Positions 8,083 to 51,521 of a stretch of 64,000 nt of DNA are shown one piece after another (positions within the stretch are counted from its first letter, which is position 1; each line of letters begins with the position of its first letter). This stretch comes from Burkholderiales bacterium. Lineage in GTDB: Bacteria > Pseudomonadota > Gammaproteobacteria > Burkholderiales > SG8-39. The stretch spans positions 6,419 through 70,418 of the forward strand of contig JBAUTZ010000310.1 of the NCBI GenBank assembly GCA_049582445.1. Direction: 5' to 3'. A program made the translations under genes and the position numbers. The notes under the pieces were generated by a model. That model made no database searches and had not been told where the DNA came from. It saw nothing but the letters and a program-made list of their open reading frames with translations.

Positions 8083-8385
8083 ATGAGAGTCCTAGTGCTT
8101 TTCGCGGGGGTAGTGTGCGCTGCGCCGATCGTTGCGGACGCGGCAGACCAGACAACCGCCCGCAACCTCGCCGCAACCTGCGCCAACTGCCACGGCACCG
8201 ACGGCCGCAGTGTGACCGAGGCGGTTGCGCCGTTGGCCGGGAAGCCAAAGGACGAGATCGTCAAGCTGATGCAGGCGTTCAAGACTGGCAAGAAGCCCGC
8301 CACGGTCATGCACCAGATCTCGAAGGGCTACACAGATCAACAGATTGAACTTGTTGCCGGCTATTTGGCCGGACAGCCGAAGTGA
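8083..8385 (+). CDS. fccA: Monoheme c-type cytochrome, likely the cytochrome subunit of flavocytochrome c sulfide dehydrogenase
   Basis: It has a signal peptide, a single CANCH heme-binding motif and a distal Met (VMHQ). Its stop overlaps the flavoprotein gene start (GTGA). Strong GGAGGAGGAG RBS. Confidence 0.75.
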   Translation: MRVLVLFAGVVCAAPIVADAADQTTARNLAATCANCHGTDGRSVTEAVAPLAGKPKDEIVKLMQAFKTGKKPATVMHQISKGYTDQQIELVAGYLAGQPK

Positions 8386-9662
8386 GGCCGACCATGACGC
8401 CGCTCAAGCGACGCGAATTCATCAAACTTGCCGGCGCCGCGACGGCGCTGTCGCTGGCGGGATGCGCCGGCGTGGGGGGCAGCAAGCCCAAGGTGGTGGT
8501 CATCGGCGGGGGATTTGGCGGCGCTACGGCCGCGAGGTACATCCGCAAATGGGATCCTTCCATCGAGGTCGTGATGGTCGAGCGGGAAGCGTCGTTCACT
8601 TCGTGCCCGATGTCGAACCTGGTGATCGGCGGCAACCGCAGCATCGATGAGATTCGCCGCACCTATGACGGCCTGCGCCGCGTCGGCGTGCAGGTTGTCA
8701 CCGACGAAGTCACCGCGATCGACACCCGGGCGCGCGTGGTAAAGCTTGCAAGGGGGGGCAACCTCACGTACGACCGGCTCGTGGTTTCCCCCGGCATCGA
8801 CTTCATGTTCGACACGATCGAGGGTTACGAACCGGCGCTGGGCGCGCAAGAAGTCCTGCATGCTTGGAAGGCGGGGCCGCAGACGGTGGCGTTGCGGTCC
8901 CAGCTCGAGCGCATGCCGGATGGCGGCGTGTACCTGCTATCCATCCCGTCTGCACCGTATCGCTGCCCTCCGGGGCCCTACGAGCGCGTCTGCCAGGTCG
9001 CGCATTACTTCAAGACCTACAAGCCACGCTCCAAGATCCTGGTGCTCGACGCCAACCAGGACATCGTGTCCAAGGGCAAATTATTCCGTGAGGCCTGGAC
9101 GAGCCTGTATCCGGGAATGATCGACTACAAGCCGCAGAGCAATGTCGTCGCGGTGGACGGCGGGTCGATGGCAGTCAAGACCGAGTTCGACACCTTCAAG
9201 GCAGATGTTCTGAACGTGGTGCCTGCACAGCGCGCCGGAAGCATCGCCGCGGGAGCCGGCCTGGTCACACACAACAACCGGTGGTGCGACGTCGACTGGA
9301 TGACCTGTGAGTCGAAGGCGGCCAAGAACGTGCACATCATCGGCGATGCGACGCTGTCGGCGCCCGCCATGCCCAAGTCGGGGCATATGGCCAACTCGCA
9401 AGCCAAGGTCTGCGCTGCTGCGGTCGTCGCACTCATCAACGGTCAAGCGCTCGACCCAACGCCGGTGGTCAACAACACCTGCTACAGCTACGTCTCCGAC
9501 AAGGAGGCGGTGCACGTAGCCTCCGTGCACCAGTGGGATGCAGGGGCCAAGACCCTCCAGCCGGTCAAAGACGCCGGCGGACTGTCCCAGGCACGTAATG
9601 GAGCGGAGGGTGCGCTCGCGTGGAGCTGGGCGCAGAACATCTGGGTGGACACCCTAGGCTAG
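8382..9662 (+). CDS. fccB: Flavocytochrome c sulfide dehydrogenase flavoprotein subunit (FccB/SoxF-like), with a Tat signal and a lipobox
   Basis: The twin-arginine motif KRREFIK is present, LSLAGC is a lipobox, and VVVIGGGFGGATAA is an FAD dinucleotide fold. The start is GTG 8382 or ATG 8394. Confidence 0.8.
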   Translation: MRPTMTPLKRREFIKLAGAATALSLAGCAGVGGSKPKVVVIGGGFGGATAARYIRKWDPSIEVVMVEREASFTSCPMSNLVIGGNRSIDEIRRTYDGLRRVGVQVVTDEVTAIDTRARVVKLARGGNLTYDRLVVSPGIDFMFDTIEGYEPALGAQEVLHAWKAGPQTVALRSQLERMPDGGVYLLSIPSAPYRCPPGPYERVCQVAHYFKTYKPRSKILVLDANQDIVSKGKLFREAWTSLYPGMIDYKPQSNVVAVDGGSMAVKTEFDTFKADVLNVVPAQRAGSIAAGAGLVTHNNRWCDVDWMTCESKAAKNVHIIGDATLSAPAMPKSGHMANSQAKVCAAAVVALINGQALDPTPVVNNTCYSYVSDKEAVHVASVHQWDAGAKTLQPVKDAGGLSQARNGAEGALAWSWAQNIWVDTLG

Positions 9663-10171: not shown

Positions 10172-11374
10172 TTATTTTCGCTTGCCGGCGGCGAGCATGC
10201 CCGCGATATGCAGCATGAGCTTGCGCGCCAGATCCAGCTTCGCACCGCGGCCCAGAGGGTGTGGGCCGAGTTCATCGAATAGGGTAATGTCGTTTTCATC
10301 GGCGCCCAGCGCCTGGTGGGCGAGATTCGCAGCGACGAGCTGCAACTTCTTCTTCCTGCGCTTGGCCTCCGCGTGCTCCGCCAGCTTTTCGCTCTCCGCG
10401 GCAAACCCGACGCAGAAAGGCGGTCTGGTTCGCTTCGCGACCCATTCGAGGATATCCGGGTTCTCCTCCAAGACCAGTGTCGTGCCTCGGCCAGACTCCT
10501 TCTTGATCTTCTGCCGGGCCGGGCTTTTGACCCGGTAGTCGGCGACCGCCGCGACCGAAACGAACACGTCGCAAGCGCTCACGGCAGCCTTTACCGCGTC
10601 GAACATCTCGCCGGCGGTTCGCACGTCGACGCGGGCCGCTCCGGTGGGCGTCGGCAGTGAGACTGGGCCGCTGACTAGCGTTACCTGTGCGCCCGCCTCG
10701 TGCGCCGCACGTGCCACGGCAAATCCCATCTTTCCTGAACTCAAATTGGTGATCACTCGCACCGGATCGATCGGTTCCTCCGTCGGACCTGCAGTTACCA
10801 GCACGCGTTTCCCCGCTAGGACCTTCGGCTGGAAGAACGCCTCGATTTCCTCGGCGATCTGCGCAGCTTCGAGCATGCGGCCCATTCCCGTCTCGCCGCA
10901 GGCCTGATCGCCCGCCGTGGGCCCCGCGAAGGCAACCCCGTCATCGCGTAGCGTCAGCACGTTTCGTTGTGTCGCAGGGTTTTCCCACATCTCGACGTTC
11001 ATCGCCGGAGCCAGCATGAGCGGGCAGCGGCGAGCAAGTACGAGCGTCGAAAGAAGATCGCCAGCCAGGCCCACTGCCAGCTTGGCGATGAAATCGGCGG
11101 AAGCCGGCGCCACGACGATCAACTCGCGGTCGCGGGACAGCTCTATATGCCCCATGTTGTCACCGACGCGAGCGTCCCACAGGTCGGTCCACGCCGGTTG
11201 CCCGCTAAGCGCCTGCATGGTCACGGGCGTCACGAAACGCGTCGCGGCTTCGCTCATGGCAACACGCAGATCGACGCCCGCCTTGACCAGGATGCGTGCG
11301 AGCTCGGCTGCCTTATAAGCAGCGATGCCTCCTGTCATGCCGAGTAGCAGCTTCTTACCCTTGATCGATGTCAT
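10172..11374 (-). CDS. coaBC: Bifunctional phosphopantothenoylcysteine decarboxylase / phosphopantothenate-cysteine ligase
   Basis: 400 aa. The N-terminal flavoprotein domain has GGIAAYK, and a C-terminal CoaB domain follows. The coaBC-dut arrangement is conserved. Confidence 0.95.
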
Positions 11375-11434
11375 CGGCCCGGGCGCTAGCGCGTTGGATG
11401 GAAAGGGATTCTAGGTGAATTCAGGGGGGGGCGC

Positions 11435-12109
11435 ATGGCAATTACCGACTGGCCTAGCGAGCAACGCCCACGCGAGCGCCTGCTGGCGCGGGGGCCGGCC
11501 CTGCTCTCCGATGCCGAGCTCGTCGCGCTGTTCTTGCGCACCGGTGTCGCTGGCAAAAGTGCCGTTGCGTTGGCGCAGGAGCTGCTCGAACGTTTCGGAG
11601 GTCTCCGGGGCCTGCTCGGCGCTGACCATCGCGCCTTCCGGCGGGTGAAAGGGTTCGGCGACGCAAAGGCTGCGCAGCTCGCTGCGATCCTCGAGCTTGC
11701 CCGTCGTTGTCTCGGGGAGGAAATGCGCGTGGGCACGGCGCTCACCTCACCCGGTGCGGTGCGCGACTACCTGAGGCTCGCGCTCGGAAACCGCGAGTAC
11801 GAAGTGTTCGCGGCCCTGTTCCTCGACGCGCAGCACCGCGTGGTCGCAGCCGAGGAACTATTCCGCGGAACGCTAACGCAAACCAGCGTGTATCCGCGCG
11901 AGGTGGTCAAAGCGGCGCTGCGTGCCAACGCGGCTGCGGTGATCTTCGCCCACAACCATCCTTCCGGCATTGCGGAGCCCAGTCAGGCGGACGAGTTGCT
12001 CACGCGCACTCTGAAGGAGGCGCTCGCGCTGGTGGAAGTGAAGCTGCTCGATCATTTCATCGTCGCCGGTAGCCAGACTCTGTCGTTCGCCGAGCGCGGA
12101 CTTCTCTGA
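11435..12109 (+). CDS. radC: RadC-family (UPF0758) JAB-domain protein
   Basis: [24 protein letters not shown] is a helix-hairpin-helix region, and the C terminus has the HNHPSG JAMM motif. Confidence 0.9.
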
Positions 12110-12112
12110 ATC

Positions 12113-12142
12113 TTGAAAAGCCCATGATTATTCGCGTATAAT
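12113..12142 (+). promoter_or_regulatory. Putative sigma70 promoter of rpmB-rpmG
   Basis: TTGAAA (12113..12118), an 18-nt spacer, then a perfect TATAAT (12137..12142), 27 nt upstream of the rpmB ATG. Confidence 0.55.
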
Positions 12143-12168
12143 CTCAGTTTTTTCGCGGAGCGCCATCC

Positions 12169-12432
12169 ATGTCCCGAGTCTGTGAAGTCACCGGCAAGAA
12201 GCCGATGAAGGGCAACCTGGTTTCGCACGCCAACAACAAAACCCGCCGCGTGTTTCAACCCAATTTGCACTACCGCCGCTTCTGGGTCGAAAGCGAGAAT
12301 CGCTGGGTCCGCCTGCGGGTATCTACGGCGGGGCTGCGCCGTATCGACAAGCTTGGCATCGACGTCGTTCTGGCCGAAGTGCGCGCCAAGGCGAAGGCAA
12401 AGGCCGCGGCCGGCTCTCGGGTCAAGGTCTAA
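12169..12432 (+). CDS. rpmB: 50S ribosomal protein L28
   Basis: [33 protein letters not shown] is canonical L28. Confidence 0.95.
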
Positions 12433-12444
12433 ACGGAGTCCACC

Positions 12445-12600
12445 ATGCGCGAGAAAATCAAGCTCGAATCGACCGCCGGTACCGGCCACTTCTACACCAC
12501 CACGAAGAACAAGCGCACCACGACCGAGAAGCTTGAGATTCGGAAATACGATCCCAAGGCGCGCAAACACGTGGTTTATAAGGAAGCCAAGCTCAAATAG
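12445..12600 (+). CDS. rpmG: 50S ribosomal protein L33 (51 aa; below the ORF-track length cutoff)
   Basis: My translation is [59 protein letters not shown] is present, and the gene sits directly after rpmB. Confidence 0.9.
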
Positions 12601-12616
12601 TACGTTCTTGGCGCGA

Positions 12617-12647
12617 ACAAAAAAGCCCGCTTAGGCGGGCTTTTTTG
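12617..12647. terminator. Bidirectional Rho-independent terminator between rpmG and the convergent desaturase gene
   Basis: AAAAAGCCCGC-ttag-GCGGGCTTTTTT. Confidence 0.8.
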
Positions 12648-12668
12648 TTTCTATGGGCCGTCGTCGAC

Positions 12669-13856
12669 TTACGCGTAGCAGCGCAGCCGTCGCGAGAAGT
12701 CCTGCAAAGGTGCGATGCCACTTGATTCTGCGCGATGGCACCAGTCTTGCAGCTGCCGCAAAAGCTGCTCTTTCGATGCGCTCGAGCGCTCCCAGAGTGC
12801 GACCAGTTCGTGGCGCATTGCCACCACGGTCGCCAGCGCACGCGAGTTCTTCAGCGCCTCGCCGAGTCTCGCGCGCTCTGCTTCCGAAAGTCGTTGCGCG
12901 CGCAACAGCGCCCGCTTCAGCGACTTTAGCGCCGCAGCGTCCTTCGGCGACCAGTGGGTCAGGCGGTCCAGCTCTTCCCGATAGGTCTTCTTGATCGACT
13001 TCGCGTAGCGTGAAAGAACATCGTATCGGTTGGCGATGACCGCATGCAGGGTGTCGAAGTCGGCAGCGGCCTTCGGTTCCGCGAAACGCGGCTTCGGTGC
13101 TACCTTCTTCACCGACGCCAGTCCCAGCATCTCGAGGGTGCTGATGTATAGCCATCCGATGTCGAACTCGTACCACTTGTTCGAAAGCTTGGCCGACGAG
13201 GCGAAGGCGTGGTGGTTGTTGTGCAACTCCTCGCCTCCGATCAGGATGCCCCATGGCACGATGTTCGTGCTGGCATCAGCGCAATCGTAGTTACGGTAGC
13301 CGAAATAGTGGCCCAGGCCGTTGATCACGCCGGCCGCCCAGAACGGGATCCACACGATTTGCGTCAGCAGGATGAGCGCTCCCGGCACCAGACCGAAAAG
13401 CAGGAGGTCCGCGGCCCCCATGACGGTCAGGCCCAGGATCGCGTATCGGGAGTAGAAGTTGCGCTCGATCCAGTCATCCGGCGTGCCGTGGCCATACCGC
13501 TCCATGGTCTCCGGATTGCGCGACTCTTTGACGTAGAGGAACACTCCGGCCCACAGCACCCGGTTGATGCCCAGCACTTGCGGGCTATGAGGATCCTCCG
13601 CGGTCTCGCACTTCGCATGGTGCTTGCGGTGAATAGCCGCCCACTCCTTGGTGACCATCCCGGTCGTTAGCCACAACCAGAAGCGAAAGAAGTGCGACAC
13701 GATCGGATGCAGGTCGAGCGCGCGGTGTGCTTGGTGGCGATGCAGGAATATCGTTACCGACGCGATGGTTACGTGCGTGAGGCCGAGAGCCACGAGCACG
13801 TAACCCCACCACGGCAAATCGAAGAATCCGGAAAAAATCATCAGGTTGGCCCGCAA
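12669..13856 (-). CDS. desA: Membrane fatty-acid (delta-9-type) desaturase, DesA-like
   Basis: Three histidine boxes are present (HRHQAH, HRKHH, HNNHHAF). The length of 395 aa and the long helical C-terminal extension match the Pseudomonas DesA type. Confidence 0.8.
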   Translation of the reverse strand: MRANLMIFSGFFDLPWWGYVLVALGLTHVTIASVTIFLHRHQAHRALDLHPIVSHFFRFWLWLTTGMVTKEWAAIHRKHHAKCETAEDPHSPQVLGINRVLWAGVFLYVKESRNPETMERYGHGTPDDWIERNFYSRYAILGLTVMGAADLLLFGLVPGALILLTQIVWIPFWAAGVINGLGHYFGYRNYDCADASTNIVPWGILIGGEELHNNHHAFASSAKLSNKWYEFDIGWLYISTLEMLGLASVKKVAPKPRFAEPKAAADFDTLHAVIANRYDVLSRYAKSIKKTYREELDRLTHWSPKDAAALKSLKRALLRAQRLSEAERARLGEALKNSRALATVVAMRHELVALWERSSASKEQLLRQLQDWCHRAESSGIAPLQDFSRRLRCYA

Positions 13857-38236: not shown

Positions 38237-38821
38237 CTATACGGCCAGCGGCGGCACGAGGTCTCCCGGCGCATCGATGTCGCGGATCACGCCGGGGTCG
38301 CCACACGGGATCTTGACCAGCAAGTTCTCGTGCTGCACGAGGACTCGGCGCGCGCCCTCGTCACCCGAAAGTGCCTCCAGCTCGGCGCGAAAGCGTCCCG
38401 CGATGCCGACGGGATGGCCACGCCTGCGGCGAAAGTACGGCGCCGCGAGCAGCGCGCCCGCTTCGAGAGCTTCTCGAACGGCGGCGATCGAACTGGGGCG
38501 CACGAAGGGCATGTCGGCCAATGCGACGATGTAGCCGCGCGCCTCCCCTGCGGCGCGGACCGCACAGGCCAGGCTGGCGCCCATGCCCTCGTCCGCGTTC
38601 GCGCACACGACCACGTCGCAGCCTTCCGCCGCGAGGCTGCGCGCGCGTTCCTCGGCGCCCGGGCGCACCACGGCGACCACGCGCGAGACCTGGCTCAGCA
38701 GGTGGCGGGCCGCCTGCACCGCCATCGGGACCCCGTGCGGCAGGCGATGTTGCAGCTTGTCCGACCCGAAGCGCGAAGCAGACCCGGCCGCCAGCAGCAG
38801 GCCGACGAAGTCCTGGCTCAA
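38237..38821 (-). CDS. mocA: MobA-like nucleotidyltransferase, probable molybdenum cofactor cytidylyltransferase MocA
   Basis: GLLLAAGSASRFG is a P-loop-like motif, and ALADMPFV is present. The provisional TTG start at 38821 overlaps the xdhC stop (TTGA). Confidence 0.7.
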   Translation of the reverse strand: MSQDFVGLLLAAGSASRFGSDKLQHRLPHGVPMAVQAARHLLSQVSRVVAVVRPGAEERARSLAAEGCDVVVCANADEGMGASLACAVRAAGEARGYIVALADMPFVRPSSIAAVREALEAGALLAAPYFRRRRGHPVGIAGRFRAELEALSGDEGARRVLVQHENLLVKIPCGDPGVIRDIDAPGDLVPPLAV

Positions 38822-39834
38822 GCTTTCTGCGGCGCGACCTCGCAGGCCGACGGCGCGAAGCGGCTCCCTTCCTTCTCGGCCCAATCCGGCGCGGTGACAC
38901 CGTGGCGCACTGCCGTCATCTCGGCGAGGATAGCCACCGCGATCTCGGGCGGCGTCTTGGAGCCGATGTAGAGTCCGACCGGGCCGCGCAAACGCGCGAT
39001 CTCCGAGTCGGAAAGGTCGAACTCGCGCAGCCGCCTGCGGCGCGAATCGTTGTTCTTCTTCGAGCCGATGGCGCCGACGTAGAACGCCGCCGACTTGAGC
39101 GCCTCGAGCAACGCCATGTCGTCGAGCTTCGGATCGTGCGTCAGCGCCACTACGGCACTGTGGCCGTCAAGATTTAGACCTGCGATAACGTCATCCGGCA
39201 TGCCACGATCGAGGGCCACGCCGGCCAGGTTCCAGCCTTCTGCGTACTCCTCGCGCGGATCGACCACGGTCACGTGGTAATCGAGCATCCGCGCCATCTC
39301 TGCGAGATAGCGCGTCAGCTGCCCTGCGCCGATCAGAACAAGGCGCCAGCGCGGGCCATGCACGGTCGTAAGCGCCTTGCCGTCGTACTCCAGCACGTCC
39401 TGCCAGCCGCCTGGCTCGAGCGTAACGCGGCCGGAATCCATCTCCAGGCGCCGGCGCACCAGCTGCTGCTTGCCGATCGTGTCGAGCAGTTGCCCGATCG
39501 CGCTGGCGTCACCCACCGGCTCTAGCACGACCTGCAGCGTCCCGCCGCAGGGCAGGCCCCAGCGGGTCGCTTCCTCGTTCGTCACTCCGTAGGTCAGCTC
39601 CTGCGGCCGCGTCGCAGCGACCGCCCTGGCTCTCACCTTCTCCACCAGATCGTCCTCGACACAGCCCCCAGACACCGAGCCGGATATCTGGCCGTCGTCC
39701 CGCACGGCGACCAGGGCACCCACCGGACGCGGCGCCGAGCCCCAGGTCTTCACGATGGTCCCGAGAGTCACCCCGTGGCCCGCCTTGCGCCAGGCCTCGG
39801 CGCTTCGCAACACCTCGATGTCTACGCTGTCCAT
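38818..39834 (-). CDS. xdhC: XdhC/CoxI-family molybdoenzyme maturation (sulfuration/insertion) factor
   Basis: The N-terminal XdhC_CoxI region has GSAPRPVGALVAV...GSVSGGCVE. A C-terminal Rossmann-like domain (LVLIGAG) follows. ATG at 39834 has a GGAGG RBS. Confidence 0.8.
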   Translation of the reverse strand: MDSVDIEVLRSAEAWRKAGHGVTLGTIVKTWGSAPRPVGALVAVRDDGQISGSVSGGCVEDDLVEKVRARAVAATRPQELTYGVTNEEATRWGLPCGGTLQVVLEPVGDASAIGQLLDTIGKQQLVRRRLEMDSGRVTLEPGGWQDVLEYDGKALTTVHGPRWRLVLIGAGQLTRYLAEMARMLDYHVTVVDPREEYAEGWNLAGVALDRGMPDDVIAGLNLDGHSAVVALTHDPKLDDMALLEALKSAAFYVGAIGSKKNNDSRRRRLREFDLSDSEIARLRGPVGLYIGSKTPPEIAVAILAEMTAVRHGVTAPDWAEKEGSRFAPSACEVAPQKA

Positions 39835-39874
39835 GCATGCCTCCAATCCGGGGCTATGGCGCTATTTTATTCCC

Positions 39875-41263
39875 TTATGCGGACAGGACCGGAAAAATCA
39901 AGGTCACTCTGCAGCCCTTTCCCGTGGTCGCCGGCTCGCCGATCTCGAGGCTGGCGCCATGCGATGCGGCGATCTCGCCTACGATCGCCAGCCCCAGCCC
40001 GCTGCCCGTGCCGAGGGTTCCCGGAACGCGGTAGAACCGCTGCAGCACGTGCGCGCGCTCTTCGGGCGGAATGCCTGGCCCGTCATCCTCGACCTCGAGG
40101 ATGGCCTGCGGACGACCCTCGGCCGCGCGCGTGCCCGTGCGCACCGTGACGTGGCCCCCGGACGGGGTGTACTCGAGCGCGTTGTGCACCAGGTTCGCGA
40201 GCGCCTCGCGCAACAGAAACTCGTTGCCCCGCGCGCGCGCCTCGCCGAGTTCGAAGCCCAGATCGATGTCCCGCGCCAAGGCGCGGTGAACCCACTCGTC
40301 GGCTACACCCTCGACGATGCGCCTGATATCGAGCGTCTGCATCCCTGCTTCGGGATTCCCTCCGGGCTCCGCGCGCGCCAGCGCGAGCAGCTGATTCGCA
40401 AGCCGCGCGGTCCTTATAGTCGCCAAGTGCACCTGCTCGAGCTCGGTGCGGCACCCCTCTGGTACCGGCTGTGCGAGGGCAAGCTCGGTATGCGCTTGCA
40501 GTCCGGCAAGCGGCGTGCGCAACTGGTGCGCCGCGTTGGCCAGGAACCGCTGCTGGTTGTTGTTCGCTTCCGCCACCCGCCCGAAGAGGTCGTTCAGCGC
40601 GCCAACGAGCGGTTTCGCTTCCTCGGGTGCGTGTTCGACTTCGATCGGCCGCAGGTCCCGCGGCGAGCGTTCCTTGATCTGCTCGGAGAGCCGGGCGAGC
40701 GGCGTCAGCCCGCGCTTTACGCCGAACCACACGATCACCAGTGTGGCGACCGCGATCAGCAAGGTCGGCACCAGGCTGGAAAGCACGATGTCGCGCACGA
40801 GGCGCCTGCGCTTGACGGTGGTCTCGGCGACCTGGACGGTGCATACCTTTCCCTCGCAGGGGACGAGCACGCCAACCACCCGCACGGGGCGGTCCATGTA
40901 ACGGTCGTCATAGGCAATGACGCCTTCCTTGGGCACGGCCTTCGGAGGCGGTGGCGCCAGACCCGGATCCCCCCCTACGGGCGTGCCGTCCGGCGCCAGC
41001 ACGCGGAAGTAGATCTGGTCGCGGCGGTCGGTGCGCAGCACCCGCTCAGCCGCAACGGGCAAGTCCAGAGCGTAGACACCATTTTCCAGCCGGATGCGCT
41101 CGCCGAGCGCCAGGCCGATATCGATCAGGGCTTGGTCATAAGCCGCCCTGGCAGGGCCAATTACCGGGTAGTAAGCGATCACTGCGCCCGCGGCCAAGAG
41201 CGCAGAGATCGGCGGCAGCAGCCGCCGCAGCAGTTGAACTCGAAGACTTCGGCCGGTGGTCAC
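39875..41263 (-). CDS. Sensor histidine kinase with a TctE/QseC-like periplasmic N-terminal domain
   Basis: The start is set at GTG 41263, 1 nt after the response-regulator stop. There are two TM segments, the H-box NAAHQLRTPL, the G1 motif DDGPGIP and the G2 motif GSGLGLAIV. Confidence 0.85.
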   Translation of the reverse strand: MTTGRSLRVQLLRRLLPPISALLAAGAVIAYYPVIGPARAAYDQALIDIGLALGERIRLENGVYALDLPVAAERVLRTDRRDQIYFRVLAPDGTPVGGDPGLAPPPPKAVPKEGVIAYDDRYMDRPVRVVGVLVPCEGKVCTVQVAETTVKRRRLVRDIVLSSLVPTLLIAVATLVIVWFGVKRGLTPLARLSEQIKERSPRDLRPIEVEHAPEEAKPLVGALNDLFGRVAEANNNQQRFLANAAHQLRTPLAGLQAHTELALAQPVPEGCRTELEQVHLATIRTARLANQLLALARAEPGGNPEAGMQTLDIRRIVEGVADEWVHRALARDIDLGFELGEARARGNEFLLREALANLVHNALEYTPSGGHVTVRTGTRAAEGRPQAILEVEDDGPGIPPEERAHVLQRFYRVPGTLGTGSGLGLAIVGEIAASHGASLEIGEPATTGKGCRVTLIFPVLSA

Positions 41264-41264
41264 G

Positions 41265-41939
41265 TCAAGGCCCCACGAAATCCTCGAGCATGTAGCCGAA
41301 CCCGCGGACGGTCCGGACGCGGATCCCGGCGGGCTCGAGCTTCGCGCGCAGGCGCGACAGGTAGACCTCGATCGCGTTGGGCGAGAGCTCCTCGCCCCAG
41401 CTTGCGACCGCCTGGATGATCGATTCCTTCGAGACGACGCGCTCGACGTTGGCGAGCAATACCTCGAGTACTGCCCATTCGCGCGCGGCCAGGTCGAGCG
41501 GCGCACCCCCGAGGTAGGCGCGGCGCGCTACGGTATCGAGGACCAGCGGCCCGTGCACGACCTTCGGTCCAGCCTGCGACTGGCTGCGGCGAATCAGGGC
41601 ACGGACGCGTGCTGCAAGCTCGGGCATTGCGAATGGCTTGGCAACGTAGTCGTCGCCACCGATGTCTAGCCCGCGCACCCGGTCGTCGGTCGCGTCGCGC
41701 GCCGTGAGCAGCAATACCGGGACGCGGTTGGGCGCGGCGCGAAGACGGCGCAGCGCCTCGAAACCATCGATGCCAGGCAAGCCCACGTCGAGGATGACGA
41801 GGTCGAAGCGCTCCTGCTTCGCCGCGAGAACCGCCTGCTCACCGCTCCTCACGGAGTCGACCGCGTAGCCCTCCGACTCAAGGATGCGGGTCAGGCCACT
41901 GACGAGAACGGGATCATCCTCGACGATCAGGATGCGCAT
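41265..41939 (-). CDS. OmpR/PhoB-family response regulator (TctD-like), copy 1
   Basis: The REC domain has VEDD...DLVILD...LLLTA...KPF, followed by a winged-helix domain (VRGFGYML). Confidence 0.9.
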   Translation of the reverse strand: MRILIVEDDPVLVSGLTRILESEGYAVDSVRSGEQAVLAAKQERFDLVILDVGLPGIDGFEALRRLRAAPNRVPVLLLTARDATDDRVRGLDIGGDDYVAKPFAMPELAARVRALIRRSQSQAGPKVVHGPLVLDTVARRAYLGGAPLDLAAREWAVLEVLLANVERVVSKESIIQAVASWGEELSPNAIEVYLSRLRAKLEPAGIRVRTVRGFGYMLEDFVGP

Positions 41940-42008
41940 GGGGCAGGCATGGAACGGGGCGCAGCATCATAGCGCCCGCCCGCCCCGCACGCATCCGCCC
42001 CACGCGCT

Positions 42009-42764
42009 TCAGGCGGCCTTGCGGCTGGGATACTCCAGCAGCATGTAACCGAAGCCGCGAACCGTGCGAATGCGGATGCCGCCCGGTTCGAGCTTGGCCC
42101 GCAGGCGCGAAACGTAGACCTCGATCGCGTTCAGCGACAAGTCGTCGCTCACCCCCGCGACCGCCTCGATAATCGCTTCCTTCGATACCGTGCGCTCGAT
42201 GCGCTCGAGCAGCACCATCAGCACCGACCATTCGCGGGCGGCCATTTCCAGGGGCTGCCCGCTTAGCCACGCTCGCCTCGCGTTGGTGTCGAGCGTCAGC
42301 GGCCCGTGCACGATGCGCGGCCCGGTCTGTCCACGGCCGCGCCGTCCTAGTGCACGAACGCGCGCCGCCAGCTCGGGCAAGGCGAACGGCTTGGGCATAT
42401 AGTCGTCGGCGCCGAGGTCCAGTCCGCGTACCCGGTCATCGACCGCGTCGCGCGCCGTGAGGATCAGCACCGGTTGCGCGTGTCCGGCCGCGCGCATGCG
42501 CTTCAGGACCTCGAAGCCGTCGATTCCCGGCAGGCCAATGTCCAGCACCATCAGGTCGAAACGCTCGGCGGAAATGCGGCCGAGAGCCTCCTCACCGTTG
42601 CCCGTGGCGGCCACCTCGTAGCCCTGGTTGACGAGCGCGCGCGACAATCCTGCGGCGAGCGACGCGTCATCCTCCACGAGCAGCAGGCGCACTGGCGCGG
42701 GACCTTGGGGAGAGGGCGGCACGCCAGACGCTTCAGGGGCATGATTGACCTGCGCATGATTCAT
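42009..42764 (-). CDS. OmpR/PhoB-family response regulator, copy 2 (paralogue of copy 1 with a 27-aa N-terminal extension)
   Basis: It has the same architecture as copy 1. My hand alignment gives about 145/219 identical residues. GAGGAG RBS 6 nt before the ATG. Confidence 0.9.
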   Translation of the reverse strand: MNHAQVNHAPEASGVPPSPQGPAPVRLLLVEDDASLAAGLSRALVNQGYEVAATGNGEEALGRISAERFDLMVLDIGLPGIDGFEVLKRMRAAGHAQPVLILTARDAVDDRVRGLDLGADDYMPKPFALPELAARVRALGRRGRGQTGPRIVHGPLTLDTNARRAWLSGQPLEMAAREWSVLMVLLERIERTVSKEAIIEAVAGVSDDLSLNAIEVYVSRLRAKLEPGGIRIRTVRGFGYMLLEYPSRKAA

Positions 42765-43037: not shown

Positions 43038-43517
43038 ATGGCAGTGAAGATTTCCATGAAGGTCAACGGCAAGCCCGTCTCGGCCGAGGTCGAGGCGCGC
43101 ACGCTGCTGGTGACGTTCATCCGCGAACACCTCAGACTCACCGGCACGCACGTGGGTTGCGACACCGCCCAGTGCGGCGCCTGCACCGTTCACATGAACG
43201 GCAAGGCGGTGAAGTCGTGCTCGATGCTGGCGATGCAGGCCGAGGGCGCCGAGATCGTGACCATCGAAGGCGTGGCCAAGGCCGATGGCACATTGCATCC
43301 GATGCAGGCCGCGTTCAAGGAGCACCACGGTTTGCAGTGCGGCTTCTGCACGCCGGGCATGGTGATGAACGCGATCGACTACGCCGGCAAGCACCCGGGC
43401 GCGAGCGAGCAGGAAGTGCGCGAGAGCCTCGAGGGCAATCTGTGCCGCTGCACCGGCTACCACAATATCGTCAAGGCGATCATGGCCGGTTCCAAGACCA
43501 TGGCCGCGTCCAAGTAA
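43038..43517 (+). CDS. coxS: Molybdenum hydroxylase small subunit, 2x[2Fe-2S] (CoxS-like)
   Basis: The cysteine clusters are [12 protein letters not shown]...SC and CGFCTPG...CRCTGY. GAAGGAGG RBS. Confidence 0.9.
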
Positions 43518-43529
43518 GGAGGACATGCC

Positions 43530-45890
<2,361 letters not shown>

Positions 45891-45910: not shown

Positions 45911-46708
45911 ATGCACGCATTCGAATACCATCGCCCCTCGTCGCTCGCCGACGCGTCCAAGCTGGCGACCAAGGGCGCCGACACCAAGCTTCTGGCCGGC
46001 GGCCAGAGCCTGGTGCAGACAATGAAGCTGCGCCTGTCCGCGCCGAGCGACCTCGTAGACCTGAACGCGATCGGCGAGCTGCGCGGCATCAAGTCCGACG
46101 GCAAGACGGTCACCATTGGTGCGATGACGCGCCACGCCGAGGTCGCGGCCTCCGCGGACGTGAAGAAGGCGATCCCCGCCCTCGCCGCGCTCGCCAGCAT
46201 GATCGGCGACCGGCAGGTGCGCCACCAGGGAACGATCGGCGGCTCGCTCGCCAACAACGACCCCGCCGCCGACTACCCGGCCGCGGTCCTCGGCCTCGGC
46301 GCCACGGTAGTGACCAACAAGCGCAGGATCGAGGCAGACAAGTTCTTCAAGGGCATGTTTGAGACCGCCCTCGAGGGCGGCGAGATCATCACGCAAGTCT
46401 CCTTCCCCGTGCCGAAGCGCGCCGCGTACACGAAATTCAAGAACCCGGCCTCGCGCTTTGCCATCGTCGGCGTGTTCGTCGCCGACACCGGCAGCGGCGT
46501 GCGGGTGGCCATCACCGGCGCGGGTCCGAGCGTATTCCGCCAGGGCGACATGGAGAAGGCGCTGTCGGCCAAGTTCGACTCCGCATCCGTCGCCAGCGTC
46601 AAGCAGAAGGCCGATGGCCTGAACAGCGACCTGCACGCGAGCGCGGAGTATCGGGCTCACCTCGTCACGGTCATGGCGAAGCGCGCGGTGGAGGCGGCAC
46701 TGAAATAG
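45911..46708 (+). CDS. coxM: Molybdenum hydroxylase medium FAD-binding subunit (CoxM-like)
   Basis: LLAGGQSL and GTIGGSLANNDPAADY are FAD_binding_5 motifs. The ATG at 45911 follows AAGGAAAAAGGAGAA. Confidence 0.9.
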   Translation: MHAFEYHRPSSLADASKLATKGADTKLLAGGQSLVQTMKLRLSAPSDLVDLNAIGELRGIKSDGKTVTIGAMTRHAEVAASADVKKAIPALAALASMIGDRQVRHQGTIGGSLANNDPAADYPAAVLGLGATVVTNKRRIEADKFFKGMFETALEGGEIITQVSFPVPKRAAYTKFKNPASRFAIVGVFVADTGSGVRVAITGAGPSVFRQGDMEKALSAKFDSASVASVKQKADGLNSDLHASAEYRAHLVTVMAKRAVEAALK

Positions 46709-46730
46709 CCGTGCCGCGAGCCCCTTCCAA

Positions 46731-46760
46731 CGGCCCGCCCCTGGCGGGCCGTTTCTTTTT
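46731..46760 (+). terminator. Rho-independent terminator after coxM
   Basis: CGGCCCGCC-cct-GGCGGGCCG followed by TTTCTTTTT, with a TACAAT hexamer immediately after at 46761..46766. Confidence 0.75.
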
Positions 46761-46790
46761 TACAATGTGAGTTTTGTAGGTCTCCCCGCC

Positions 46791-47702
46791 ATGCCTCGCC
46801 CCCTGCCGAAATCGATCGACGAAACCCAGCACCTGCTCACCTCGGCCGATTACGTCGCCGACCGCAGCCTCGCCACCGCTCTGTTCCTGGCGCTCGCCAT
46901 GCGGCGCCCCCTGTTCCTCGAGGGCGAGGCCGGAGTCGGCAAGACCGAGATCGCCAAGGTTATCGCCGAAGCGCTCGGCCGCGAGCTGATCCGGCTGCAA
47001 TGCTACGAGGGTTTGGACATCGCGCAGGCGGCCTACGAGTGGAACTACTCGCGCCAGATGATCGAAATCCGCCTGGCGGAGGCGGCAGGCGAAAAGTCCA
47101 AGGAAAAGATCTCCCAGGACATCTTCAACGAGCGCTTCCTGGTCAAGCGTCCCCTGGCGCGGGCCCTCGAGGGTAAGCCCGGCAGTGCGCCGGTGCTGCT
47201 GATCGACGAGCTCGACCGCACCGACGAGCCCTTCGAGGCGTACCTGCTCGAGGTGCTCTCCGACTGGCAGATCTCGATTCCCGAGATCGGTACCCTGCGT
47301 GCCATCGAGCCGCCCATCGTGGTCATCACCTCGAACCGAACGCGCGAGATCCACGATGCGGTAAAGCGGCGCTGCTTCTACCACTGGGTCGATTACCCTG
47401 ACGCAGCGCGCGAGCTTGAGATCCTCAAGCGCAAGGCACCGAAGGCGGCCGAGGCATTGTCCAGGGAAGTCGTCGCGTTCGTGCAGCGCCTGCGCAGCGT
47501 CGAGCTGTTCAAACTGCCGGGCGTCGCCGAGACCATCGACTGGGTCAACTGCCTGGTGGCGCTCGACCGCATCGCGCTCGATCCCGAGACCGTGAACAAC
47601 ACGCTCGGCGTGCTGCTCAAGTACCAGGACGACATCGAAAAGATTGCCGGCGAAGAGGCGACGCGCCTGGTCGCGGACGCGAAGGCGGCGGCCGCCGCCT
47701 GA
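46791..47702 (+). CDS. coxD: MoxR-type AAA+ ATPase (CoxD-like)
   Basis: GEAGVGKT is the Walker A motif and LLIDELDR is the Walker B motif. ATG 46791 is preferred over the track's GTG 46767. Confidence 0.85.
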   Translation: MPRPLPKSIDETQHLLTSADYVADRSLATALFLALAMRRPLFLEGEAGVGKTEIAKVIAEALGRELIRLQCYEGLDIAQAAYEWNYSRQMIEIRLAEAAGEKSKEKISQDIFNERFLVKRPLARALEGKPGSAPVLLIDELDRTDEPFEAYLLEVLSDWQISIPEIGTLRAIEPPIVVITSNRTREIHDAVKRRCFYHWVDYPDAARELEILKRKAPKAAEALSREVVAFVQRLRSVELFKLPGVAETIDWVNCLVALDRIALDPETVNNTLGVLLKYQDDIEKIAGEEATRLVADAKAAAAA

Positions 47703-47709
47703 TCGAACG

Positions 47710-49002
47710 ATGCGCCTGCCAACCCTGCTCGGGCGGCTGTTCGGCGCGGGGCCCGGGCCAGCCGAGCGCGTCACGCGCAGGACCGAAGCATTGTGCCGTG
47801 CATTGCTCTCGGAGCGCGGCGAGGCCGCCGGCACCGCGCTCGCCCGCCAGGCGCTGGATGCCTACCAGTCGCTCGATGAGGAAGGCCGCGCGCGCCTGTT
47901 CGATGCTCTCGCACGTGAGTTCTCGCCGGACCCCGAGCGCGCCGCCAAGGCGGCAGAGGCCTACCGCCGCGACCCGTCTGCGGCGAACCAGGTACGCTTG
48001 CAGGCCGCCGTCGAGCCGCCGCGCCAGGAGCTGTTCCGGCGCCTGAACATGGCGCCGGGCGGCACCGCCGGGCTGGTCGCCCTGCGCCGGCAGCTGCTGA
48101 ACGAGCTGCCACGACACCCGGAATGGACTGCGCTCGACGCCGATCTCGCGCACCTGCTGCGTTCCTGGTTCAACCGCGGGTTTCTCGTGCTCGAGCGCAT
48201 CGACTGGCGAAGCTCTGCGATCGTGCTGGAGAAGCTCATCCAGTACGAGGCGGTGCACGCGATCAAGGGCTGGCCTGACCTTCACCGGCGACTTGAGGCG
48301 GACCGGCGCTGCTTTGCGTTCTTTCATCCCGCGCTACCCGACGAGCCGCTGATCTTCATCGAAGTGGCTCTGACGAGCAAGATGGCGAGCCGGGTGGAGC
48401 CCCTGCTCGACGTCTCGGCGCCGCTCGGGGATCCGCGCCGGGCGCGCTGCGCGATGTTTTATTCCATCACCAACTGCCAGGACGGATTGCGCGGCATCTC
48501 GTTCGGGAGCTTCCTGATCAAGCAGGTCGCGGAGGAGCTTCGGCGCGAGCTCCCCCAGCTGCGCACGTTCGCCACGCTGTCGCCGATCCCGGGATTTCGC
48601 CGCTGGCTCAAGGACCGCAAGGTCGCGGGGCTGGACCTGCTGGAGGAGCCCGAGTGGCCGCAGGCGAAGAAACCCGATCCGCTCGAAAAGCTGCTGATGC
48701 CGCTGTGCGCGGAATATCTGCTCGGCGCAAAGCGCGGCACGGAGCCGCTTGACCCGGTGGCGCGCTTTCATCTTGGCAACGGCGCGCGCCTGGAGCGCAT
48801 CAATTGGCTCGCCGACACCTCGCCGTCGGGGATCGAGAGCTCGGCGGGAATGATGGCGAACTACGTCTACCGGCTCGACGAGGTGGAGCACAACCACGAG
48901 CTGTTCGTGAACGAACACCGCGTCATCGCGTCGCGCCAGGTGGAACACCTGGCGCGCGAGCGCGCTCCCGCGCAGCGTCCGCGCACCGCGGTGCAGGCCT
49001 GA
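47710..49002 (+). CDS. Malonyl-CoA decarboxylase (MCD/MatA family)
   Basis: MFYSITNCQDGLRGISFGSFLIKQV...TFATLSPIPGFRRWL closely parallels the MLYCD catalytic-domain motif FYSIS.TQ.GL.G..LG.FLIK.V...SLSPIPGF.KWL. Confidence 0.85.
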   Translation: MRLPTLLGRLFGAGPGPAERVTRRTEALCRALLSERGEAAGTALARQALDAYQSLDEEGRARLFDALAREFSPDPERAAKAAEAYRRDPSAANQVRLQAAVEPPRQELFRRLNMAPGGTAGLVALRRQLLNELPRHPEWTALDADLAHLLRSWFNRGFLVLERIDWRSSAIVLEKLIQYEAVHAIKGWPDLHRRLEADRRCFAFFHPALPDEPLIFIEVALTSKMASRVEPLLDVSAPLGDPRRARCAMFYSITNCQDGLRGISFGSFLIKQVAEELRRELPQLRTFATLSPIPGFRRWLKDRKVAGLDLLEEPEWPQAKKPDPLEKLLMPLCAEYLLGAKRGTEPLDPVARFHLGNGARLERINWLADTSPSGIESSAGMMANYVYRLDEVEHNHELFVNEHRVIASRQVEHLARERAPAQRPRTAVQA

Positions 49003-49003
49003 G

Positions 49004-50224
49004 ATGTTTCCGGGACTTGACACCGACACGCGCGGCGCCGGCCGGCTCGCGCAGAACGTCATGCACTTCGCGCGACTGCTGCGCGCAGCGGGACTGCGCA
49101 TCGGCCCGGACCGTGTGATCGATTGCGTCCGCGCACTGGAGATCGCGGGCGCATCACGGCGCGAAGACTGGTACTGGACCATGTCGAGCGTGCTGCTCTC
49201 GCGCGAGGAGCAGCGCCCGATCTTCGACCAGGCGTTCCGCATTTTCTGGCGTGATCCAAAGCTCGTCGAGAAGATGATGCAGATGCTCCTGCCCAAGACG
49301 TACGGCCGCGCCGGCAAGGACGAAGAGCAACAGGCGCAGCGGCTCACCGATGCGCTGTTCGGCCAGAAGAAGCCCGAGCCGCGCGAGCAGCAGGAGCAGC
49401 GCATCGAGCTCGACGCAAAACTCACGTTCTCCGCGCGCGAAGTGCTGCAGCGCCTGGACTTCGACACCATGTCCGCGGCGGAGCTTGCCGAGGCGAAGAA
49501 GATGATCGCGGCGCTTCGGCTGCCGCTTCCCCAGATCCGCACGCGCCGGCTGGCGCGCAGCCAGCGCGGACGCCGAGTCGACCTGCGGGCGACACTGCGC
49601 GAGAGCCTGCGCGAGGGAGCGGACGTAATCCCGCTGGTGCGCGCGGCGCCAAAGCAGGTGCATCCGCCTCTCGTGGTGCTGTGCGACATCTCCGGCTCCA
49701 TGAATCCCTACTCGCGAATGTTCCTGCATTTCCTGCACGCGATCACCAACGACCGTGACCGGGTGTCGGTGTTCGTGTTCGGCACCCGGCTTACCAACAT
49801 CACGCGCCAGCTTCGACATCGCGACGTCGACGTCGCGATGGCCAAGGTCGCCGACGCGATCAAGGACTGGTCCGGCGGCACGCGGATCGGTGCCTGCTTG
49901 CGAGAGTTCAACTGGCGCTGGAGCCGGCGCGTGCTTGGCCAGAACGCGTGCGTGCTTCTGGTCTCCGACGGCCTGGATCGCGAGGCGGGCGAAGGCCTGA
50001 ACGAGGAAATGGAGCGGCTTGCGAAATCGTGCCGCTATCTCGTTTGGCTCAACCCGCTGCTGCGCTACGAACGCTTCGAGGCGCGACCCGCGGGGGTGCG
50101 CGCCATGCTGCCGCACGTCGACTTGTTCCTGCCGGTGCATAATCTCAAAAGCCTGCTGGACCTCGCCCGTACCATAAGCGGCCCAATGACACGTACCAAT
50201 CAGGAGAACCGCGCATGGAAATGA
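49004..50224 (+). CDS. coxE: VWA-domain protein (CoxE-like)
   Basis: VVLCDISGSM is the MIDAS DxSxS motif. The family partners with the MoxR ATPase. The ATG lies 1 nt after the MCD stop. Confidence 0.85.
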   Translation: MFPGLDTDTRGAGRLAQNVMHFARLLRAAGLRIGPDRVIDCVRALEIAGASRREDWYWTMSSVLLSREEQRPIFDQAFRIFWRDPKLVEKMMQMLLPKTYGRAGKDEEQQAQRLTDALFGQKKPEPREQQEQRIELDAKLTFSAREVLQRLDFDTMSAAELAEAKKMIAALRLPLPQIRTRRLARSQRGRRVDLRATLRESLREGADVIPLVRAAPKQVHPPLVVLCDISGSMNPYSRMFLHFLHAITNDRDRVSVFVFGTRLTNITRQLRHRDVDVAMAKVADAIKDWSGGTRIGACLREFNWRWSRRVLGQNACVLLVSDGLDREAGEGLNEEMERLAKSCRYLVWLNPLLRYERFEARPAGVRAMLPHVDLFLPVHNLKSLLDLARTISGPMTRTNQENRAWK

Positions 50225-50814
50225 CCGGCGAGCAGCTGATCCCTGCTTCACAGCAGGAGACGTGGAACGCGCTCAATGACCCCGAGATTCTCAAGGCCTG
50301 CGTACCCGGCTGCGAATCGATCGAGCCGATCGGCGAGAACGAGTACCAGGTGCTGATGGTCGCGCGGGTCGGACCCGTGAGCGCCAAGTTCAAGGGCAAG
50401 CTCTCGCTTTCGGACCTGAACCCGCCCAATTCCTACTCGATCGCCTTCGAAGGTCAGGGCGGCGCTGCGGGCTTCGGCAAGGGCGGCGCGCAGGTGAGCC
50501 TCGCGCAGGAGGCCGACGGTACCCGCCTGAGCTATGCGGTCAAGGCGAGCGTCGGCGGGAAGCTGGCACAAATCGGTTCGCGTCTGGTCGACGCGGCGGC
50601 GCGCAAGATCTCCGAAGACTTCTTCAAGGCGTTCACCGAGAAGGTCGCAGCCCTGCATGGGGGTCACGGCCACGAGGAGGCGCATGCCGAGCACGGCCCC
50701 GAGCCGGTGCCTGTCGACCCCGACATGCCCACCGTATCGGACGCCACCGTCGCCCTCATCGCGGCCGGCGCGCTGATCGCGGTTTTCGTCACGTTGTACG
50801 TGCTCTACGGATGA
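50215..50814 (+). CDS. coxG: SRPBCC/CoxG-family protein with a His/Glu-rich linker and a C-terminal TM anchor
   Basis: The CoxG-like core has VSAKFKGK...GGAAGFGKG. The tail is HGGHGHEEAHAEHG followed by ALIAAGALIAVFVTLYVLYG. An alternative ATG at 50221 forms an ATGA overlap with coxE. Confidence 0.8.
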   Translation: MEMTGEQLIPASQQETWNALNDPEILKACVPGCESIEPIGENEYQVLMVARVGPVSAKFKGKLSLSDLNPPNSYSIAFEGQGGAAGFGKGGAQVSLAQEADGTRLSYAVKASVGGKLAQIGSRLVDAAARKISEDFFKAFTEKVAALHGGHGHEEAHAEHGPEPVPVDPDMPTVSDATVALIAAGALIAVFVTLYVLYG

Positions 50815-51521
50815 GCGTGCTGCTGTTTCGCGATGATCCCTACCTCAAGGCCTGCGAGGCGACGGTCGTGGCCACGCGCGGCGATGCGCTCGAGCTAGAT
50901 CGCACGGTGTTCTTTCCCGCCGGTGGAGGCCAGCCGGGTGATCGCGGAGTGCTGCGTTGCGACGACGGCACCGAGTTCGAGGTCATCGATACGCGTAAGG
51001 GCGAACTGGCCGATCATGTGCTGCATGTACTCCCGGCGGGCAGCGCGCCACCCGCGGTCGGCTCGAAGCTCCGGGCGGAGCTCGAATGGGACCTGCGCCA
51101 TCGCCACATGCGATTTCATACCGCGCTTCACCTGCTGTGCGCGGTGGTCAAGGCGCCCGTCACGGGTGGCCGCATCGCCGCAGACAAGGCGCATCTCGAC
51201 TTCGATATCGACATGGAAAAACTGGATAAAGAAGCTATCGAAGCCGCGCTCAATGGCTTGGTCGGCGCCGCGCACGGTACGAGCGCGCGCTGGGTGAGCG
51301 ACACCGAGCTAGATGCGCGACCCGATCTCGTCAGAACGATGTCGGTCGCACCGCCGCGCGGCGAAGGGCGCGTGCGTCTGATCGAAATCCCCGGCGTCGA
51401 CCTGCAGGCCTGTGGCGGAACTCACGTCGCCAACACGAGCGAGATTGGCCGGCTGAAGGTCGCGCGAATTCGCTCGGAAGGAAAGCACAACAAGCGGGTC
51501 ACTATTGCATTCGCGCAATAG
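50811..51521 (+). CDS. AlaX-type alanyl-tRNA editing domain protein (COG2872)
   Basis: HTALHLL and CGGTH are the zinc motifs of the AlaRS second additional/editing domain. The junction with coxG is an ATGA overlap. Confidence 0.8.
   Translation: MSVLLFRDDPYLKACEATVVATRGDALELDRTVFFPAGGGQPGDRGVLRCDDGTEFEVIDTRKGELADHVLHVLPAGSAPPAVGSKLRAELEWDLRHRHMRFHTALHLLCAVVKAPVTGGRIAADKAHLDFDIDMEKLDKEAIEAALNGLVGAAHGTSARWVSDTELDARPDLVRTMSVAPPRGEGRVRLIEIPGVDLQACGGTHVANTSEIGRLKVARIRSEGKHNKRVTIAFAQ

Follow-up and report, generated by a model that had tools for sequence, protein, structure and literature searches.

We analysed a 64,000-nucleotide (nt) stretch of DNA from a Burkholderiales bacterium (assembly GCA_049582445.1, contig JBAUTZ010000310.1, positions 6,419 to 70,418 of the forward strand), hereafter the window, in which a gene for malonyl-CoA decarboxylase (mcd; its product, MCD) lies between coxD and coxE, the genes for the MoxR-type AAA+ ATPase and the VWA-domain protein of a form II cox cluster, whose structural genes coxSLM encode a molybdenum (Mo) hydroxylase. 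Form II cox clusters as such are known, and the one with mcd inserted represents a new variant that is specific to one lineage. Our best reading, to which we give a probability of about 0.55, is that mcd is an anciently captured and co-expressed gene for an enzymatically ordinary MCD, which is kept for its own activity and stands outside the maturation of the Mo site.

The cluster runs along the + strand from 43.0 to 51.5 kb in the order coxSLM-coxD-mcd-coxE-coxG-alaX. Within it, mcd (47710..49002, +) encodes a protein of 430 amino acids (aa) that is matched over its full length by the Pfam domains MCD_N and MCD. Upstream lies coxD (46791..47702, +; Pfam AAA_5), the translation of which contains the Walker A motif GEAGVGKT and the Walker B motif LLIDELD. 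Its start is probably ATG 46791, giving 303 aa, and not the alternative GTG 46767, given that the latter abuts the T-tract of a terminator and that the relatives are called at 303 aa. Downstream lies coxE (49004..50224, +; Pfam VWA_CoxE, 240.8 bits), which encodes the VWA-domain partner of CoxD. Read directly from the sequence, the stop codon of coxD (TGA, 47700-47702) is followed after 7 nt by the ATG of mcd at 47710, and the stop codon of mcd (TGA, 49000-49002) is separated by a single nt from the ATG of coxE at 49004 (TGAgATG). These coordinates and Pfam calls bear out a first-pass annotation of the window, made from the letters alone, which had placed a full-length MCD-family gene with this spacing between the CoxD and CoxE genes. 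Its further premise that MoxR and VWA genes are otherwise adjacent also holds: C. metallidurans CH34 has coxSLM (Rmet_0365-0363) and a contiguous coxDEGI (Rmet_0362-0359) with no mcd. The CoxD/CoxE pair of the window is likewise downstream of coxSLM, but is split by the 1293-nt mcd. In the literature library that was searched, malonyl-CoA decarboxylase is not treated together with coxD/coxE or with MoxR in any paper; the one paper that also mentions carbon monoxide dehydrogenase is a review of rhizobial transcriptomics.

The arrangement recurs among relatives. On long contigs, the genes for five MCD homologues with 83-63% identity all have coxD on one side and coxE on the other. When one genome per GTDB species was scanned with an MCD profile, 80 loci (80-49% identity) were obtained, which were then searched by tblastn with the Cox proteins of the window. 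In these two sets, 23 loci have adjacent coxD-mcd-coxE, all of them in metagenome-assembled genomes labelled as Burkholderiales, Betaproteobacteria or Pseudomonadota, with identities that fall as low as 59% for MCD, 72% for CoxD and 59% for CoxE. Look-ups based on CoxE added 6 further loci, for a total of about 30. The synteny claims rest on tblastn and database gene calls, since a gene caller based on the GC content of third codon positions (GC3) was noisy and antisense open reading frames (ORFs) sometimes won. Given this conserved synteny, the arrangement is not unique to the present genome; uniqueness was what the first-pass annotation had named as grounds for rejecting its reading. At the gene junctions of the relatives, coxD is separated from mcd by 1-25 nt or overlaps it by 4 nt; the junction of mcd with coxE takes the form TGAnATG/GTG, with a gap of 1 nt, in 13 loci including the window and is a 4-nt overlap in several others. 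The junction of coxE with coxG is -10 in almost every locus with both genes, and that of coxG with alaX is mostly -4. By contrast, the distance from coxM to coxD is anything between 15 and 4324 nt, and in L005, L006, L014, L022 and L023 (handles of this kind denote related loci) it includes inserted foreign genes. One locus of the series has an altered structural part: in L027 (5633-6921) coxM comes directly after coxS, coxL is absent from the 13.9-kb locus, and coxD-mcd-coxE-coxG follows downstream in the normal order.

By its sequence, the product of mcd is a bona fide, ordinary malonyl-CoA decarboxylase, predicted to be catalytically competent. It belongs to EC 4.1.1.9 by its domains, scoring 92.8 bits against Pfam MCD_N (PF17408, cutoff 22.4) and 331.3 bits against MCD (PF05292, E = 5.7e-99, cutoff 23.2), matches that chance cannot explain, and the closest solved structures are the MCDs of R. 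palustris (4KSA, 1e-118) and Agrobacterium vitis (4KSF, 7e-118). Like these two, the solved C. metallidurans enzyme (4KS9) and MatA of the rhizobial matR-matABC system, it combines an N-terminal helical domain with a catalytic domain of the GNAT fold, and its identity to the rhizobial copies is ~50-55%. The catalytic dyad has been described as Ser329/His423 in HsMCD and Ser312/His389 in RpMCD, with Tyr456 of HsMCD holding the catalytic histidine and Phe288 lying over the leaving carboxylate (Froese et al., PMC3701320). In a HMMER alignment, residues 27-413 of the window MCD align with 4KSA, and the equivalent positions are S291 (in TLSPIPGF), H354 (in RFHLGNGA), F250 (in FYSI) and Y385/Y387, so that the Ser/His dyad and the supporting Phe/Tyr are shared with MatA and the solved MCDs. 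An alignment of 88 MCDs, namely that of the window and those of the first 87 related loci (L001-L087), shows no variation at any of these residues (88/88); the conservation of catalytic residues, which the first-pass annotation had proposed to check, is thereby confirmed. We also looked in this alignment for clade-specific substitutions that might point to neofunctionalisation of the cox-linked MCDs, and rejected the idea: with cutoffs of >=90% for one group and <=15% for the other, no column separates the cox-linked from the non-linked sequences, and hence there is no sign of a changed function.

In 11 pairwise comparisons the ratio of nonsynonymous to synonymous divergence (dN/dS) of mcd is 0.09-0.32, that is, under purifying selection, and that of the flanking coxD/coxE is 0.04-0.23, mcd being 2-5 times more relaxed. 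The GC3 of mcd (0.86) is like that of its neighbours (0.84-0.90), and therefore the gene is not a recent import. A separate feature emerges when the window is compared with L008: synonymous divergence is 0.13-0.22 in coxS, coxL, coxM and coxD, 0.62-0.90 in mcd, coxE, alaX and a cyclase gene, and intermediate (0.33) in coxG. Such a jump suggests that homologous recombination took place recently, with its breakpoint on or close to the junction of coxD and mcd (~47700).

The same cox arrangement also exists without mcd. We sampled CoxE homologues at 82-87% identity; two of the sampled clusters have mcd (L095-L097 and L101-L103), and in the three that are without it (L089-L094 and L098-L100) coxE comes directly after coxD, with gaps of 1 and 20 nt. 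The downstream genes of these mcd-less loci (coxG, the cyclase gene and pmbA) match those of the mcd-bearing ones. In a neighbour-joining tree of concatenated CoxD and CoxE with 100 bootstraps, the deep branches L036, L027 and L021, all of which bear mcd, split from the rest in 100/100 replicates. The two mcd-less groups are sisters in 0/100 replicates, and mcd-bearing loci surround each of them in the tree (98/100 and 100/100). On grounds of parsimony, a single ancient capture of mcd would have been followed by at least two clean deletions. Given two independent losses that left coxD-coxE intact, and the contiguous coxDEGI of the cultured reference CH34, the cox accessory system seems not to need MCD. 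The two mcd-less groups also differ in their surroundings: in L089-L093 alaX is missing as well, and the place immediately before coxD is taken not by coxSLM but by ABC_sub_bind and other genes, and L098-L100 have retained coxLM upstream and alaX downstream.

The transcriptional layout appears to set mcd apart from the structural genes. Between coxM and coxD there is an intrinsic-terminator-like hairpin followed by TCTTTTTT (46729..46761, +). The hairpin proper (46729-46753) lies 20 nt past coxM, consists of a stem of 11 bp, 9 of them GC, and a loop of 3 nt, and folds with an energy of -22.6 kcal/mol (z = -6.15). A hairpin with a T-run occupies the same position in relatives even where the sequence differs (L003, L013, L007 and L027). 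Directly past the T-run is a conserved hexamer, TACAAT (46761..46766, +). It reads (T/C)TACAATGT in the window, L001, L008, L002, L009 and L015, which are the six closest loci, and is a candidate -10 element that could serve the accessory unit. In a scan of 42.5-52.5 kb we found no full sigma-70-like promoter site, and no convincing promoter- or terminator-like site between coxD and alaX. The sole terminator-like match inside mcd (48294-48316), considered as a signal that might isolate the gene, was discounted, since it is weak (8 pairs, 3 GC) and since the total of such matches equals the expectation from shuffled sequence.

Past coxE the unit continues with coxG (50215..50814, +; Pfam COXG, SRPBCC fold), which overlaps coxE by 10 nt, and with a gene for an alaX-like tRNA-editing domain (50811..51521, +; Pfam tRNA_SAD), which overlaps coxG by 4 nt. 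The latter scores 215 bits against NCBIfam AlaXM, under the cutoff of 300, has HxxxH and CxxxH motifs in its translation and follows coxG in many relatives. The simplest architecture would thus be coxSLM, an attenuator, and a second, probably co-transcribed and translationally coupled unit coxD-mcd-coxE-coxG-alaX, whose expression would depend on read-through or on a promoter of its own nearby. The first-pass annotation had taken the short gaps to imply co-transcription and probably coupled translation, with an isolating promoter or terminator as what might overturn its reading; co-transcription and coupling draw support from the 1-nt or 4-nt-overlap junctions in about 30 loci, and the sequence scan turned up no convincing instance of such a signal.

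Genes of malonate metabolism would be expected nearby if mcd belonged to a mat operon, in which it stands beside matB and matC or an equivalent transporter. A Pfam scan covered about 50 of the roughly 60 genes of the window, and neither the cluster nor these scanned genes include a malonyl-CoA synthetase (matB), a CoA-transferase or a malonate transporter (matC); the mat-operon arrangement is thus not seen in the window. The scanned genes, among which malonate or C3 functions were sought, are all housekeeping or unrelated (including icd, clpSA, fccAB, coaBC, fumC and ribDE). This differs from the canonical order on Rhizobium leguminosarum pRL1 (GntR< mcd, malonyl-CoA synthase, carrier): in Rhizobium a GntR gene precedes mcd and genes for malonyl-CoA synthase and a carrier follow it, but in the window mcd sits between coxD and coxE with no activation or uptake genes. 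More widely, many non-cox MCD genes lie beside genes for a matB-like ligase, a TRAP transporter, GntR or a CoA-transferase. No cox linkage occurs for the MCDs of Acidobacteriota, Alphaproteobacteria, Pseudomonas and Rhizobium, and a plasmid collection held only alphaproteobacterial mat-type MCDs, with zero cox-linked copies. Two loci (L064 and L030) were rejected as cox-linked, as their CoxL-, CoxM- or CoxG-like matches are distant and several kb from mcd.

Some loci preserve the linkage in rearranged form. The order is coxM-mcd-coxD in L033, coxSLM-x-mcd-coxG without coxD or coxE in L047, x-mcd-coxG in L031, and xdhC< mcd-coxG in L043 and L044. In L021, coxD-mcd has no coxSLM nearby, and two opposite-strand transporter genes precede coxE; the coxD-mcd start is found again on the shorter contig L024, also with no coxSLM nearby. 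By sequence reading, the transporter genes of L021 (9354-12071, -) are a putative MgtE-like and NRAMP-like metal transporter pair between mcd and coxE. In L024 a minus-strand ORF starts at the position of the L021 transporters before the contig ends, and in L037 (Bryobacteraceae; 10539-13104, +) the same pair occurs ~1.3 kb downstream of a non-cox mcd.

Together these observations lead us to propose the following history. The mcd gene would have been captured into the form II cox accessory unit in the ancestor of an uncultured soil Burkholderiales lineage, and would now be expressed within coxD-mcd-coxE-coxG-alaX, parted from coxSLM by the intrinsic terminator or attenuator, with the genes of the unit translationally coupled through TGAnATG or ATGA junctions. 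The chemistry of the MCD (malonyl-CoA to acetyl-CoA and CO2) would be unchanged and under purifying selection for its own activity, and its operon position might give it co-regulation with the Mo-enzyme. The MCD would accordingly be no component of Mo-cofactor or active-site maturation. Given that mcd has been lost twice from an otherwise conserved arrangement, it is probably a co-expressed passenger and not a maturation factor. Consistent with this, alaX is a second unrelated gene coupled into the unit, and the operon therefore accretes passengers. The first-pass annotation had offered two options, that the gene hints at the metabolic context of the substrate or that it is a hitch-hiking insertion; the neighbouring genes give the former no support, and the lack of malonate genes nearby together with the two clean losses of mcd leans to the latter, in the form of an ancient and selectively maintained passenger.

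Three points weigh against this reading. The gene order is kept down to ~59% protein identity with coupled junctions, which is commoner for functionally linked genes than for neutral passengers. After rearrangement, mcd is still found beside some cox gene (L033, L047, L031, L043, L044, L021 and L024). Lastly, the tree from which the independent losses were read was built with a simple distance method.

The first two of these points would suit a metabolic coupling, in which the carbon of the pathway served by the form II CoxSLM ends as malonyl-CoA (or malonate or malonate semialdehyde), with MCD acting downstream and thereby furnishing a clue to the substrate. The long-lived linkage fits such a scheme, particularly where it persists in rearranged form, as in L047 without coxD/coxE and in the mcd-coxG pairs of L031, L043 and L044, and the literature has left the form II substrate unresolved. 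One route of the xanthine oxidoreductase (XOR) family, oxidative pyrimidine degradation through barbiturate, ends in malonate. Against this, the cluster and the scanned window genes lack the malonyl-CoA synthetase, CoA-transferase and malonate transporter genes that accompany non-cox MCD loci; mcd belongs to the accessory unit, with a terminator between it and coxSLM; L021 and L024 hold coxD-mcd without coxSLM nearby; and two lineages have lost mcd while keeping the whole cox cluster. We regard metabolic coupling as the main rival reading, possible but rather unlikely. The statement that the linkage is either a real pathway link, with the form II enzyme feeding a route that ends in malonyl-CoA, or a sign that MCD is a client or partner of CoxD-CoxE appears to us improbable.

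A role in maturation, with MCD as a third component or client of the CoxD-CoxE machine that would be required when the Mo active site is assembled, or as a protein remodelled by CoxD/E, is suggested by the position of mcd exactly between coxD and coxE with coupled junctions, and by the co-occurrence of coxD-mcd without coxSLM in L021 and L024. It sits poorly with the two clean losses of mcd that left coxD-coxE intact, with the persistence of mcd without coxD and coxE in L031, L043, L044 and L047, with the fully conserved decarboxylase site and lack of clade-specific substitutions, and with the faster evolution of MCD relative to CoxD and CoxE. Furthermore, the reference systems, coxDEGI of C. 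metallidurans and coxDEFG of O. carboxidovorans, do without MCD, and we consider such a role very improbable. A neutral hitch-hiker or decaying insertion, without selected function and kept by linkage alone, would be in line with the repeated losses and with the dN/dS of mcd above that of its neighbours, but is hardly credible for a gene whose dN/dS is well below 1, which is full length in every locus with catalytic residues invariant in 88 sequences, and which has been retained across a divergence at which dS nears saturation. We thus favour the ancient capture of an ordinary MCD maintained for its own activity.

The cluster that hosts mcd is of form II, which is recognised by the active-site motif of CoxL and by the S-L-M gene order (PMC13240472, PMC2864759). 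The small [2Fe-2S] subunit is encoded by coxS (43038..43517, +; Pfam Fer2_2, Fer2), the large Mo-binding subunit by coxL (43530..45890, +; Pfam Ald_Xan_dh_C, MoCoBD_1, MoCoBD_2), and the FAD-binding medium subunit by coxM (45911..46708, +; Pfam FAD_binding_5, CO_deh_flav_C). The window has this S-L-M order, and its CoxL carries AYRGAGR instead of (A/S)YRCS(F/L)R; against NCBIfam CO_dehy_Mo_lg it scores 700 bits, under the cutoff of 991 for form I, the true aerobic CO dehydrogenase. The literature describes both the activity and the substrate of form II CoxL enzymes as unresolved. Assignment of CoxD and CoxE to NCBIfam MadB and MadC was rejected, as both fall under the cutoffs (258 vs 475 and 67 vs 600) and a literature search on them gave nothing. 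Upstream of the cluster and on the opposite strand is a gene for a Mo-cofactor insertion chaperone of the xdhC/coxI family (38818..39846, -; Pfam XdhC_CoxI, XdhC_C), which is also found upstream of coxS in relatives. A sensor kinase gene and two genes for OmpR-type response regulators (39875-42764, -) lie between xdhC/coxI and coxS. This set is present in the window, L001, L002 and L008, and absent from L003 and L007; it could regulate the cox cluster in a manner peculiar to the lineage.

Two described systems are closest to this cluster. It resembles the form II cluster of C. metallidurans CH34 in the S-L-M order, the AYRGAGR motif of CoxL, the presence of coxD, coxE and coxG, and an xdhC/coxI-type gene; it differs in having mcd inside coxD/coxE, alaX past coxG, and xdhC/coxI upstream on the opposite strand. 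With the CoxD-CoxE(-CoxF-CoxG) system of Oligotropha carboxidovorans it shares the pairing of a MoxR-type AAA+ ATPase with a VWA protein, the genes for which lie downstream of the structural ones. However, the O. carboxidovorans enzyme is of form I with a [CuSMoO2] site, and that system has coxF and no MCD, whereas the window is of form II and no coxF was seen in it.

The part of the chromosome that holds the cox cluster is a core region: nrdR-glyA is found on one side and pmbA-darP on the other, with xdhC/coxI and the two-component system upstream of the cluster. Besides nrdR, glyA, pmbA and darP, the remaining scanned genes of the window include a branched-chain amino-acid ABC transporter and a mog-like gene, and Rfam and tRNA scans of the window gave no matches. 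Two features stand farther from the cluster. A flavocytochrome c sulfide dehydrogenase (FCSD) pair, comprising a cytochrome c gene and an FCSD flavoprotein gene (8083-9662, +), suggests a predicted capacity for sulfide oxidation in the organism. A single ORF at 12669-13856 (-) joins FA_desaturase (residues 16-219) to a fragment of DDE_Tnp_ISL3 (residues 273-392). An insertion-sequence remnant may have disrupted a desaturase gene or become fused to it; alternatively, the ORF may be an artefact of the caller.

Soil and marine bacteria very commonly carry form II genes, and among the few genomic clues to the substrate and role of the enzymes is a conserved neighbour whose chemistry is defined. 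The lineage that carries the ancient linkage belongs to abundant, uncultured Burkholderiales, and natural versions of the operon exist with and without mcd, so that both kinds of genome are directly comparable. If the linkage were a pathway link, or if MCD were a client or partner of CoxD-CoxE, it would be the first genomic handle on the physiological role of the form II 'CO dehydrogenases'. If mcd is a passenger, as we deem most likely, the locus would be a caution against inferring function from MoxR/VWA neighbourhoods, and a clean example of how unrelated genes, here mcd and alaX, may be bound into an accessory operon through coupled translation.

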